Shown one piece after another: positions 48,927-50,318 of a DNA stretch of 64,000 nucleotides (positions are counted from its first letter, which is position 1; each line of letters opens with the position of its first letter). The stretch covers positions 110,094-174,093 of the forward strand of contig JBKQMS010000031.1 of assembly GCA_052326485.1 (NCBI GenBank). The letters run 5' to 3'. Made by a program: the position numbers and the translations under genes. The notes under the pieces are model-generated. The model was not told where the DNA came from and searched no databases. It saw nothing but the letters and a program-made list of their open reading frames with translations. Source of the DNA: Thermoplasmata archaeon (GTDB taxonomy: Archaea; Thermoplasmatota; Thermoplasmata; Lutacidiplasmatales; UBA184).

Positions 48927-50318
48927 TTGGCGGGCGGACGGCTCGAGCAGCATCCTGAACGCGTCCGCGAGAAGGCCCTCCGGACGCTCGTGAAGGCCGG
49001 TTGCCGCCAGGATGAGCTGGACCTCATTGTCGCCTTCCTAGACCAAGGGTTCCGGACGGCTACCGAGCGGGCGAAGAAGCTGTCGGAGATCGCCGACTTC
49101 GTCACGTCCATCGGCGTCCCGGCGGCTCGTGACTATTTCCGGGCCATCGCAGAGACCCGGGCCGTCGGAGAGCTCACGGACGAGCGGGTCCTCGCGTTCG
49201 CCCGCAGCGTCGACCGCCACACCGCCGAATGGTACTTTTGGGCGATCTGGGGGACCAAGGCGGTCCACGAACTCACGAACGAGCGGGTTCTTCAGGCAGT
49301 GAAGTTCTTCCGGTCCATCGACAGCCCGGCGACCGTAGAGTATTTCTTGGCGATCCGGGAGACGAAGGCGGCTGCGGAGCTCACGAACGAGAAGGTCCTC
49401 GCGTTTGCCGAATCGATCGGCAGCGACGCCGCGGTGGAGTACTTCGGAGCGTTCTGGGAGACGAAAGCGGTGGCCGCGCTCACCAGCGAGAGGGTCCTCG
49501 CCTTCGCTCAATCCATCGGCGGCGACGCCGCCAAGGAGTACTTCCTGGCGATCCGAGAAACGAAGGCCGTGGCGGAGCTCACGGACGAGAAGGTCCTCAC
49601 GCTCACCCACTCCCTGGGCGGTCGCGTAGCAGGGGAGTACTTCCGGGCGGTCCGGGAAACGGGGTCCGCCTCGGAACTTACGGCCGAAGGGGTACTCCTC
49701 TTTGCCGAAACCATTGGGAAGGGCCCCGCCCGGGAGTACTTCCAGGTGATCCGAAGCACGAAGGCCGTCGCTGAGCTCACGGCCGAGAGCCTGCTCCGAA
49801 CCTCCGGGGTGATTCGAGAGATCGGCAGCGACGCGGCGTTAGATTACTTCCTGGCGGTAGCCACCACCAACGTTGTGCCTCCCCTGCCGGGGACCGCGGA
49901 GACTCCTAGCGCGCCGACGACCGAAACCACGGTACCCGTTCTCACCCTCCTCGACATCCCCACGTACGACCGCTACCGCCCCGTCGCACTGCTCGGCATG
50001 AGCGTTGTCTTCTGGGTCGGCGTCTGGCAGTCCGCGAACCTCGCCTCGTTCGCGTTCCAGACCCTCCTGAGCCTATCGCTGGTCCTCGGAGCCTGGGTCG
50101 GTCTGCTGTGCAGCGCCTACCTTCTGCTCGGGGTGATCGCCGAGCATTCCATCGTGGAGTTCCTACAGAGGCGCCGGCGCCTGCTCAACGAGCACGGCAT
50201 CCGTTGGCACGATTGCTTCGCGACCGAGCAACGCTGCGAGCTATGCTGGGGTACGGGTCACACGCACCAGGACCGCCAGTACGACTACGGAAGCTTCTGC
50301 CGCTGTCCCGCGTGCTAG
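48927..50318 (+). CDS. membrane protein with 8 tandem 33-aa helical repeats and C-terminal Cys cluster
   Basis: The repeat consensus is SIGxDAAxEYFLAIRETKAVAELTxEKVLAFAx. The conserved Tyr falls at residues 70, 103, 139, 172, 205, 238, 271 and 307. A Pro/Thr linker, 2-3 TM helices and CELCWGTGHTHQDRQYDYGSFCRCPAC follow. TTG start, with no in-frame ATG nearby. Confidence 0.7.
   Translation: MAGGRLEQHPERVREKALRTLVKAGCRQDELDLIVAFLDQGFRTATERAKKLSEIADFVTSIGVPAARDYFRAIAETRAVGELTDERVLAFARSVDRHTAEWYFWAIWGTKAVHELTNERVLQAVKFFRSIDSPATVEYFLAIRETKAAAELTNEKVLAFAESIGSDAAVEYFGAFWETKAVAALTSERVLAFAQSIGGDAAKEYFLAIRETKAVAELTDEKVLTLTHSLGGRVAGEYFRAVRETGSASELTAEGVLLFAETIGKGPAREYFQVIRSTKAVAELTAESLLRTSGVIREIGSDAALDYFLAVATTNVVPPLPGTAETPSAPTTETTVPVLTLLDIPTYDRYRPVALLGMSVVFWVGVWQSANLASFAFQTLLSLSLVLGAWVGLLCSAYLLLGVIAEHSIVEFLQRRRRLLNEHGIRWHDCFATEQRCELCWGTGHTHQDRQYDYGSFCRCPAC
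49080..49880 (+). repeat. in-frame tandem repeat, 99-nt period (two 108-nt units), 8 copies
   Basis: The periodicity is visible at the DNA level, for example the recurring gagctcacgSacgagVrggtcctcgcgttYgc and gagtacttc segments. Confidence 0.8.

Follow-up and report, generated by a model that had tools for sequence, protein, structure and literature searches.

Why should an archaeal gene that encodes a membrane-anchored array of helical repeats keep company with ammonium transporter genes, and to which repeat family does the array belong? The question is raised by a 463-residue protein encoded in a 64,000-nucleotide stretch of DNA from a Thermoplasmata archaeon (GenBank assembly GCA_052326485.1, contig JBKQMS010000031.1, positions 110,094 to 174,093 of the forward strand), a stretch that we call the window. 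A model that had read the letters and open reading frames of the window without database searches (hereafter the sequence-only reading) had drawn attention to this gene, the repeat gene, and had been unable to place its repeats in any named family. We found that the repeats are significantly similar to those of TAL effectors (TALEs), and that an Amt2-type ammonium transporter gene lies nearby at every locus with enough downstream flank to tell. We propose tentatively, and at somewhat less than an even chance, that the product of the repeat gene is tethered to the membrane, faces the cytoplasm and serves an ammonium-transport module of uncultured soil and peat Thermoplasmata as an adaptor or regulator. 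To our knowledge, TALE-like repeats come so far only from bacteria and from one fungus-derived sequence, and only in soluble proteins that read DNA and are for the most part secreted; the searchable literature contained no account that we could find of a TALE-like form from an archaeon or bound to a membrane.

The argument that follows refers to these parts of the gene, all on the plus strand:

48,927-50,318 (+): whole repeat-protein gene, 463 amino acids, TTG start
48,927-49,073 (+): N-terminal cap, residues 1-49, with helices at residues 10-23 and 28-41 in the AlphaFold2 (AF2) model
49,074-49,883 (+): eight helix-loop-helix repeats, R0 to R7, from sequence register and the AF2 model
49,884-49,979 (+): Pro/Thr/Ala linker (residues 320-335) and juxtamembrane motif (336-351), with an AF2 confidence (predicted local distance difference test, pLDDT) of 33-58
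49,980-50,132 (+): predicted membrane hairpin, consisting of transmembrane segment TM1 (352-370), an 11-residue outer loop and TM2 (382-402), from hydropathy and the positive-inside count
50,133-50,315 (+): tail, predicted to be cytoplasmic, consisting of a basic helix, RRRRLLNEHGIRWHDC, followed by a Cys/His cluster, from alignment A1

The repeat array and its similarity to TAL-effector repeats

Consistent with the count of the sequence-only reading, the array is made of eight tandem units, six of 33 and two of 36 amino acids, with a conserved tyrosine at residues 70, 103, 139, 172, 205, 238, 271 and 307. The units occupy residues 50-82 (R0), 83-115 (R1), 116-151 (R2), 152-184 (R3), 185-217 (R4), 218-250 (R5), 251-283 (R6) and 284-319 (R7), and the two longer ones, R2 and R7, carry a three-residue insertion in the first helix of the unit, helix a. 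In an AF2 model built from a 32-sequence alignment (A1), DSSP assigns helix a of every repeat to about positions 4-12, helix b to about 15-28 and the loop between them to 13-14; pLDDT exceeds 90 across the array, which bears out the alpha-solenoid of two-helix units that had been envisaged. A third helix of the N-terminal cap, at residues 45-62, continues into R0 in the same model.

The units are, however, far less alike than the description of them as near-identical implied, for they share between 30% and 73% of their residues (mean 47%) and between 47% and 77% of their nucleotides (mean 61%), and the 99-nucleotide period that had been called obvious in the DNA is recovered by Tandem Repeats Finder as only 3.3 copies at 75% (49,338-49,661). 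Repeats at the same position in different species are 64% identical, as against 40% for repeats at different positions; the number of repeats is constant at eight in a family that has diverged to 47% identity; and individual positions carry their own signatures in the 32 sequences of A1, such as SVDxHTAEWYFWAIWGT in R1 and SIGSDAAVEYFGAxWET in R3. Because same-position identity exceeds identity between repeats, the array is old and positionally fixed. The suggestion of a recent expansion or of concerted evolution is thus refuted by the same two identities and by the fixed repeat number, and the comparison of copy number among relatives that had been recommended as a check gave eight repeats in all of them and no signal of active expansion.

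To what, then, are these units related? In Pfam-A (E values up to 1), NCBIfam and PADLOC scans of the protein there was no match to HEAT, PBS-lyase, Sel1, TPR, PPR, PUF or DnaJ models, and the scans returned a weak AvrBs3 match and chance matches only; that the repeats stand outside the well-described HEAT, PBS-lyase, Sel1, TPR, PPR and PUF families therefore agrees with what Pfam returned. A named family could nevertheless be found. The NCBIfam AvrBs3 TAL-effector model matched at E 6.5e-7, far below its full-length cutoff, and phmmer against all PDB chains retrieved TAL effectors and designer TALEs only, at E 4e-24 to 3e-11 (best single stretch, i-E 9.8e-6), with alignments that run in register, repeat upon repeat. 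A profile of the family likewise found TALEs only in the PDB (E 1.9e-18). In the printed PDB alignment, R4 and a TALE repeat are identical at 13 of 33 positions in register, 11 of them within the first 20 positions, which run from helix a through the loop into the beginning of helix b. The TALE match was absent when the sequence was reversed or shuffled within repeats, so the signal depends on residue order.

Foldseek gave BurrH (E 0.03, probability 0.94), dHax3 and PthXo1 as its top PDB matches, but these were weak, with a TM-score of about 0.19 and a root-mean-square deviation of about 18 Å. The consensus reported for TALE-like repeats, X6-V-X6-G-X13-L-X4-6, with Val7, Gly14 and Leu29 (de Lange et al. 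2015, PMC4787788), is kept at Gly14 alone, in six of the eight repeats; position 7 is Leu (with Val at position 6) and positions 28/29 are Thr/Lys rather than Leu. Relatives from Micrarchaeota, described below, fell by themselves below significance against TALEs, and the link to TALEs therefore rests on the Thermoplasmata branch. Since the motif is mostly missing and the Micrarchaeota relatives are negative, we call the repeats TALE-related on the strength of their significant similarity and regard them as a probable distant new branch, with partial convergence a formal possibility.

With the TALEs of Xanthomonas and the TALE-like proteins (the RipTALs of Ralstonia, Bat/Btl/BurrH of Mycetohabitans, the marine MOrTL1/2 and STAR) the archaeal repeats share a unit length of 33-36 amino acids, a layout of short helix, two-residue loop at 12/13 and longer helix, and a cap that precedes the array, TALEs too having an N-terminal cap ahead of their repeats. 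The 13 identities out of 33 between R4 and a TALE repeat come close to the value for MOrTL and TALE repeats, which has been reported as 35% (PMC4787788). The differences lie elsewhere: the archaeal protein is not secreted but anchored in the membrane, with a presumed zinc knob, its array is ancient and fixed at eight repeats, an Asp aligns with Lys 16 of the TALE repeat, Val7 and Leu29 are lost, global superposition is poor, and the residues that vary from repeat to repeat sit in helix b (positions 16, 19, 20, 23, 26 and 27) rather than at 12/13. The RNA-reading PUF and PPR proteins offer an analogy only. Their repeats are also about 35-36 amino acids long, and what each repeat recognises is set from one side of a helix, by a small number of residues that in PUF proteins are spaced i, i+1, i+4; their fold, however, is different, and they have no sequence or profile match to the archaeal protein.

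The placement of the variable residues follows from a score for each register position, defined as ortholog conservation minus inter-repeat identity, which picks out positions that are specific to a repeat and yet conserved among orthologs. These are positions 23 (0.62), 19 (0.54), 26 (0.53), 20 (0.51), 27 (0.47) and 16 (0.42), with EW..W..WG in R1 and VE..G..WE in R3 as examples of the resulting signatures. On the same score, positions 12 and 13 reach no more than 0.07 and 0.23; from R0 to R7 they read SI, SV, SI, SI, SI, SL, TI and EI. The variable positions of the earlier consensus (register 3, 11, 15 and 19), which had been offered as possible specificity sites, are thus mostly the wrong ones. 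In the Micrarchaeota relatives, variability within the array is highest at 19, 20 and 23 (0.80-0.85), followed by 16, 8 and 27, and positions 12/13 are likewise nearly invariant, the variation being carried by helix b. Because they alternate with a conserved core at 18, 21, 22, 25 and 28, we infer that positions 16, 19, 20, 23, 26 and 27 form a solvent-exposed face of helix b.

These positions bear on whether the array could read DNA as TALEs do. In the TALE code the base is set by positions 12/13, and a constant Ile13 would spell a homopolymeric A-tract; a search of the window for the poly-A target so predicted found no A7/T7 run. Position 16 is Asp in three repeats and aligns with the Lys of the TALE repeat, which we take to be the residue that contacts phosphate in TALE-DNA structures. 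Given the constant 12/13 positions, Asp16 and the absence of an A7/T7 tract, reading of double-stranded DNA in the TALE manner appears unlikely, other modes of nucleic-acid binding being possible; and given the first two of these, the ligand is more probably a protein than double-stranded DNA read as by a TALE. The family would extend the TALE-type fold to archaea and move the residues that bear specificity away from the loop at 12/13 and onto one side of a helix, and as such it would amount to a natural experiment on the re-purposing of a modular repeat scaffold, and possibly to a new engineerable binding surface.

Membrane anchor, tail and soluble relatives

Between the array and the membrane lies the Pro/Thr-rich linker that had been noted before, which is predicted to be disordered (residues 320-343, pLDDT below 50). 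It gives way to a juxtamembrane motif, VPVLTLLDIPxYxRYR, in which V336, P337, L339, L341, L342, D343, P345 and Y347 are invariant or nearly so; conservation of this region is 0.75, as against 0.21 for the linker. Of the two to three transmembrane helices that had been suggested, two were found (352-370 and 382-402) and a third was not, and AF2 draws the helices of the hairpin at 350-372 and 380-422, the TM2 helix thus extending to residue 422. The mean number of Lys plus Arg residues is 0.3 in the connecting loop as against 6.1 after TM2, from which the positive-inside rule predicts a cytoplasmic location for the two ends of the hairpin and with them for the repeat array and the tail. An N-terminal hydrophobic signal is absent, as the sequence-only reading had said of a signal peptide. 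The repeat domain is mildly acidic, with a net charge of -4.9.

The longest invariant or nearly invariant run of the whole protein, R416-C430 (RRRLLNEHGIRWHDC), lies in the tail, which ranks among the best conserved regions of the protein and where H428, C430, C437xxC440, H447 and C458xC460xxC463 are invariant across the 32 sequences. The conserved pairs C437xxC440 and C460xxC463 are those of a zinc ribbon, in a part of the model that is of low confidence (pLDDT about 50), and the tail is presumed to be a zinc-ribbon-type knob with extra ligands that would bind metal. A likeness to the Cys cluster of DnaJ, proposed earlier, found no support: the CxxCxGxG string occurs in the window ortholog alone and both of its glycines are unconserved in the family, the corresponding residues being CWS-AG, CWD-SA, CWR-AD and others, so the tail is not a DnaJ finger. 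Pfam returned for the cluster only a sub-threshold Anti-TRAP match (E 0.1), and a profile search of 1.84 billion representative proteins found the transmembrane and zinc module in no other architecture.

Homologues of the whole protein number 66, reach down to 47% identity and are nearly all 455-470 amino acids long. The repeat gene is present in seven species-level Thermoplasmata genome records (metagenome-assembled genomes, MAGs) and 62 metagenome loci; the loci with a name, which are those of the seven genome records, are all from Thermoplasmata, and the metagenome contigs are nameless. The profile search of the same representatives retrieved 111 proteins, among which those outside the Thermoplasmata family are soluble proteins that begin with the same N-terminal cap, continue with 2-12 repeats of both the 33- and the 36-residue subtypes and end in C-terminal domains of 400-750 amino acids without family assignment. 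The named ones are from Micrarchaeota, namely Mia14_0486 of Candidatus Mancarchaeum acidiphilum and a protein of a Candidatus Micrarchaeales MAG. Genes for soluble relatives were located at three Micrarchaeota loci, in the coordinates of each locus:

L008, 4686-7535: soluble relative
L074, 8001-11156: soluble relative
L075, 1285-4467: soluble relative

In the profile search the Micrarchaeota-type relatives, whose cap and repeats are clearly homologous to those of the window protein, reached E values down to 1e-138. Their N-terminus keeps the cap (the Micrarchaeales protein P0073 aligns from residue 4), and over 290 amino acids P0073 has 49% identity with the window protein, which is the level of the most distant true ortholog and which suggests that the repeat module moved horizontally between Thermoplasmata and Micrarchaeota. 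Mia14 depends on a Thermoplasmata host and has swapped genes with it (PMC5498576). A module common to hosts of this class and to DPANN Micrarchaeota could offer a lead into symbiont-host dialogue or gene flow.

The Micrarchaeota proteins, which are uncharacterised, are thus like the window protein in their homologous cap, their two repeat subtypes and the helix-b positions at which they vary, and differ from it in being soluble, in their large C-terminal domains, in a polymorphic repeat number and in having no Amt genes as neighbours. The polymorphism extends to close relatives: a single cluster formed at 90% identity contains proteins of 883, 916, 949 and 1053 amino acids, most of which differ by whole repeats. 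Two types of C-terminal domain recur, each with invariant Cys motifs, GGR[YF]SGDCTAPP...YCF...D(S)xEF in one and VGFPSCLDI...DANN in the other, and neither Pfam, NCBIfam, PADLOC nor the PDB (by sequence and by profile) returned anything for the C-terminal domains, with the exception of P0085. This metagenome protein of 489 amino acids, the only relative with a recognisable catalytic domain, joins the cap and four repeats to TPR repeats and to a nucleotidyltransferase domain of the Pol-beta type (PF01909, at threshold). A search of the Micrarchaeota relatives for a signal peptide, a transmembrane segment or conserved secretion neighbours found none, and no relative of the repeat protein was found on viral contigs.

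The ammonium transporter neighbourhood and competing explanations

In the window the gene order is PPDK (+), a GtrA-family gene (-), the repeat gene (+), a gene for a protein of 200 amino acids (+), Amt1 (+) and Amt2 (-). The genes downstream of the repeat gene are as follows:

50,418-51,020 (+): 200-amino-acid partner gene, immediately downstream of the repeat gene in 36 of 50 informative unique loci
51,307-52,584 (+): Amt1-type ammonium transporter, from its open reading frame, Pfam PF00909 on orthologous neighbours and synteny
52,843-54,063 (-): Amt2-type ammonium transporter, present near the repeat gene in every informative locus

We counted neighbours over 63 unique loci and took as informative those with at least 3.2 kb of downstream flank for Amt2 and at least 1.3 kb for any Amt gene. 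An Amt2-type gene lies no more than 3 kb from the repeat gene in all 31 loci of the former kind, and some Amt gene lies within 1.1 kb downstream or 0.4 kb upstream in all 39 of the latter. This holds across five different gene orders: several lineages (L006, L010, L026 and others) lack the 200-amino-acid gene and Amt1 nearby, which leaves the repeat gene directly convergent with Amt2, and in two others (L009 and L034) Amt2 has been relocated to the upstream, divergent side. The upstream neighbours vary with the lineage and include GtrA/PPDK, an ABC ATPase, DNA_alkylation and Amt2. The repeat protein itself is 53-78% identical across loci, whereas the Amt proteins are 81-92% identical, and it is thus the faster evolving of the two. 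As for the transporters themselves, the Amt1 and Amt2 paralogues are about 45% identical and stand tail to tail; both keep what appear to be the twin-histidine contexts of the pore. The Amt2 gene has a conserved leader of about 90 nucleotides after the box CGTCATTCGGACCACACACAAAGATGAATAC.

An amt gene is usually paired with glnK, in archaea as elsewhere (PMC3831643), and GlnK/PII is a small regulator that works on the transporter from its cytoplasmic side (PMC3831643, PMC3198391). Its place next to amt is taken in these loci by the repeat gene and the 200-amino-acid gene, and tblastn with GlnB found no PII gene below E 1.9 in the 64-kb window and 10 related loci, PF00543 being unlisted among the neighbours. 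The parallel with the GlnK/PII-AmtB pair is one of functional context, for the repeat protein has no homology to PII and its action on Amt is conjectural. An Amt linkage without a neighbouring glnK would point to an unexplored form of nitrogen-uptake control in abundant soil and peat archaea.

The 200-amino-acid protein is modelled by AF2 (pLDDT 89) as an antiparallel coiled-coil hairpin with a small beta domain, in which CxxC pairs from the N- and C-termini meet as a split zinc ribbon. No meaningful fold neighbour of the model was present in the PDB, the coiled-coil/zinc-ribbon protein CT398 appearing only at E 2.5. It has 144 homologues, nearly all of about 200 amino acids (188-261 among the 120 listed); those with an organism name are all from Thermoplasmata, and most are nameless. 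Its gene has a conserved upstream box of its own, GCTAAAyTCAAGTGCTAATACC.

In the arrangement that we favour, the N-terminal cap and the eight TALE-related repeats would make a rigid solenoid that hangs from the two-helix membrane hairpin by a disordered linker of about 25 residues. The exposed residues of helix b would together offer one fixed, asymmetric surface for the binding of a single specific macromolecule, candidates for which are an Amt trimer at its cytoplasmic face, the coiled-coil/zinc-ribbon protein encoded next door and a regulator. Because Amt2 is always adjacent and glnK is not nearby, we propose that the repeat protein recruits or sequesters a partner at the transporter, and such an action could result in a PII-independent control of ammonium uptake or signalling. 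We count in favour of an ammonium-transport role that the Amt linkage survives rearrangement and that the soluble relatives have no such linkage.

A number of observations weigh against this role. Convergent neighbours are not co-transcribed, synteny within one archaeal class may in part be shared descent, and glnK could lie elsewhere in the genome, the search having covered the window and the 10 loci. The 200-amino-acid protein is not singled out as the ligand, repeat-protein conservation being equal in lineages with and without its gene next door, and the exposed face of helix b is deduced from alternation with core positions and not from measured burial. The net charge of the repeat domain is compatible with DNA, and the characterised TALE-like proteins all bind DNA, one base per repeat (PMC4787788, PMC11417379), which makes a nucleic-acid ligand plausible. 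One might accordingly picture a membrane-tethered regulator whose array binds DNA or RNA either at the membrane, in the manner of ToxR and CadC, or once proteolysis at the linker has set it free, and which controls the amt genes on a signal sensed together with the transporter. The kinship of the repeats to those of TAL effectors and the cap ahead of them would fit such a protein, as would the zinc-ribbon-type CxxC...CxxC tail, a disordered and hence cleavable linker, a conserved palindromic box that overlaps the promoter of the gene itself, and the fusion of repeats to a nucleotidyltransferase domain in P0085. CadC, which like ToxR is a one-component regulator with a nucleic-acid-binding-type domain tethered to the membrane, works with a co-sensing transporter; the analogy is limited by the different DNA-binding fold of these regulators and by the archaeal protein having a hairpin anchor and no periplasmic sensor domain. 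Such a regulator would, however, have to do with 12/13 positions that are nearly invariant (S-I/V/L) and not repeat-specific, with a window devoid of A7/T7 runs, with Asp at position 16 in three repeats and with a Val7/Gly14/Leu29 motif (PMC4787788) kept at Gly14 alone; inspected by eye, moreover, the four promoters of the locus showed no shared operator, each having a conserved box of its own. We regard such a regulator as the main rival, possible but unlikely.

A plainer account would make the protein a membrane-anchored scaffold unrelated to ammonium transport, and its Amt neighbourhood a matter of inherited order with no bearing on function. In most loci, indeed, the repeat gene and Amt2 converge and are not co-transcribed, the loci that bear a name are confined to Thermoplasmata (the metagenome contigs being nameless), and the repeat protein evolves much faster than the Amt proteins. 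An order that was merely inherited would nevertheless be hard to reconcile with an adjacency that has survived at least five rearrangements, among them the relocation of Amt2 and the loss of the intervening genes, while the genes upstream differ by lineage, and we consider this account distinctly improbable. The Micrarchaeota relatives raise the further thought that the protein is a host-symbiont interface factor, a decoy or docking site on the host membrane for the ligand of the symbiont repeat proteins, or the reverse. Its closest relatives outside the family do come from Micrarchaeota, Mia14_0486 included, with a cap and array as similar (49%) as the most distant orthologs, with a repeat number that varies within a 90%-identity cluster and with hypervariable positions at 19, 20 and 23, and Mia14 both depends on and shares genes with its Thermoplasmata host (PMC5498576). 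These proteins, however, have no signal peptide, transmembrane segment or conserved secretion neighbours, the strict Amt linkage would go unexplained, and the host clade is a high-GC soil and peat lineage in which a symbiont is undocumented, so that we give the idea very little weight. Scarcely more credence goes to a speculation that joins several of these threads, in which positions 19, 20 and 23 of helix b, with 16 and 26/27 beside them, might constitute a second recognition code, not seen before on a repeat scaffold of the TALE type. One repeat would then correspond to one unit of a linear polymer (nucleic acid or extended peptide); the symbiotic Micrarchaeota would employ their hypervariable arrays of variable length as programmable targeting modules, fused to effector domains of unassigned kind; and in the Thermoplasmata that host them a single array of eight units would have become fixed on the membrane, where it would take over from PII by keeping a specific partner at the ammonium transporter.

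Gene start, upstream signals and the upstream neighbour

Two signals precede the gene:

48,916-48,921 (+): Shine-Dalgarno-like GAGGTG, 5 nucleotides before the TTG, in most orthologous loci
48,876-48,893 (+): conserved putative promoter box, ACGGAAGACTTATCGTGG, aligned upstream of the gene in orthologous loci

The TTG start is retained in 10 of 10 orthologous loci. As had been reported, no alternative presents itself, there being an in-frame stop four codons upstream and no further start-type codon before a GTG at codon 22. The TTG, the Shine-Dalgarno sequence and the upstream box are kept across orthologous loci, and the start is therefore to be considered real and conserved.

The same conservation bears on the concern, raised with the gene itself, that the repeat array might have been produced by assembly or gene calling. 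Short reads can mis-assemble tandem repeats and a TTG start is unusual, but the repeats, at 47-77% identity in DNA, are too diverged for collapse, the start codon and its Shine-Dalgarno sequence are conserved and the AF2 model is confident. More than 60 assemblies, independent of one another and made in different projects, encode the same eight-repeat protein of about 463 amino acids, a recurrence by which an artefact is excluded; we leave it next to no chance.

In ten orthologous loci the gene is preceded, at a distance of about 40 nucleotides, by a conserved box, ACGGAAGnCTTATCG; the promoter box was aligned in the window and in L001-L005, L007 and L009-L011. It contains a TATA-like CTTATCG (48,884-48,890) about 40 nucleotides before the start codon, and 48,876-48,893 probably acts as the promoter. 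In several loci (L002, L003 and L005) the box takes the form GGAA-N9-TTCC around the TATA-like core, and this may be an operator that overlaps the TATA box of the repeat gene.

Divergent from the repeat gene in the window lies a gene for a membrane protein of the GtrA/DPMS family (PF04138, E 7e-19; 48,003-48,533, minus strand), which is kept upstream only in the closer relatives L001-L003 and L007.

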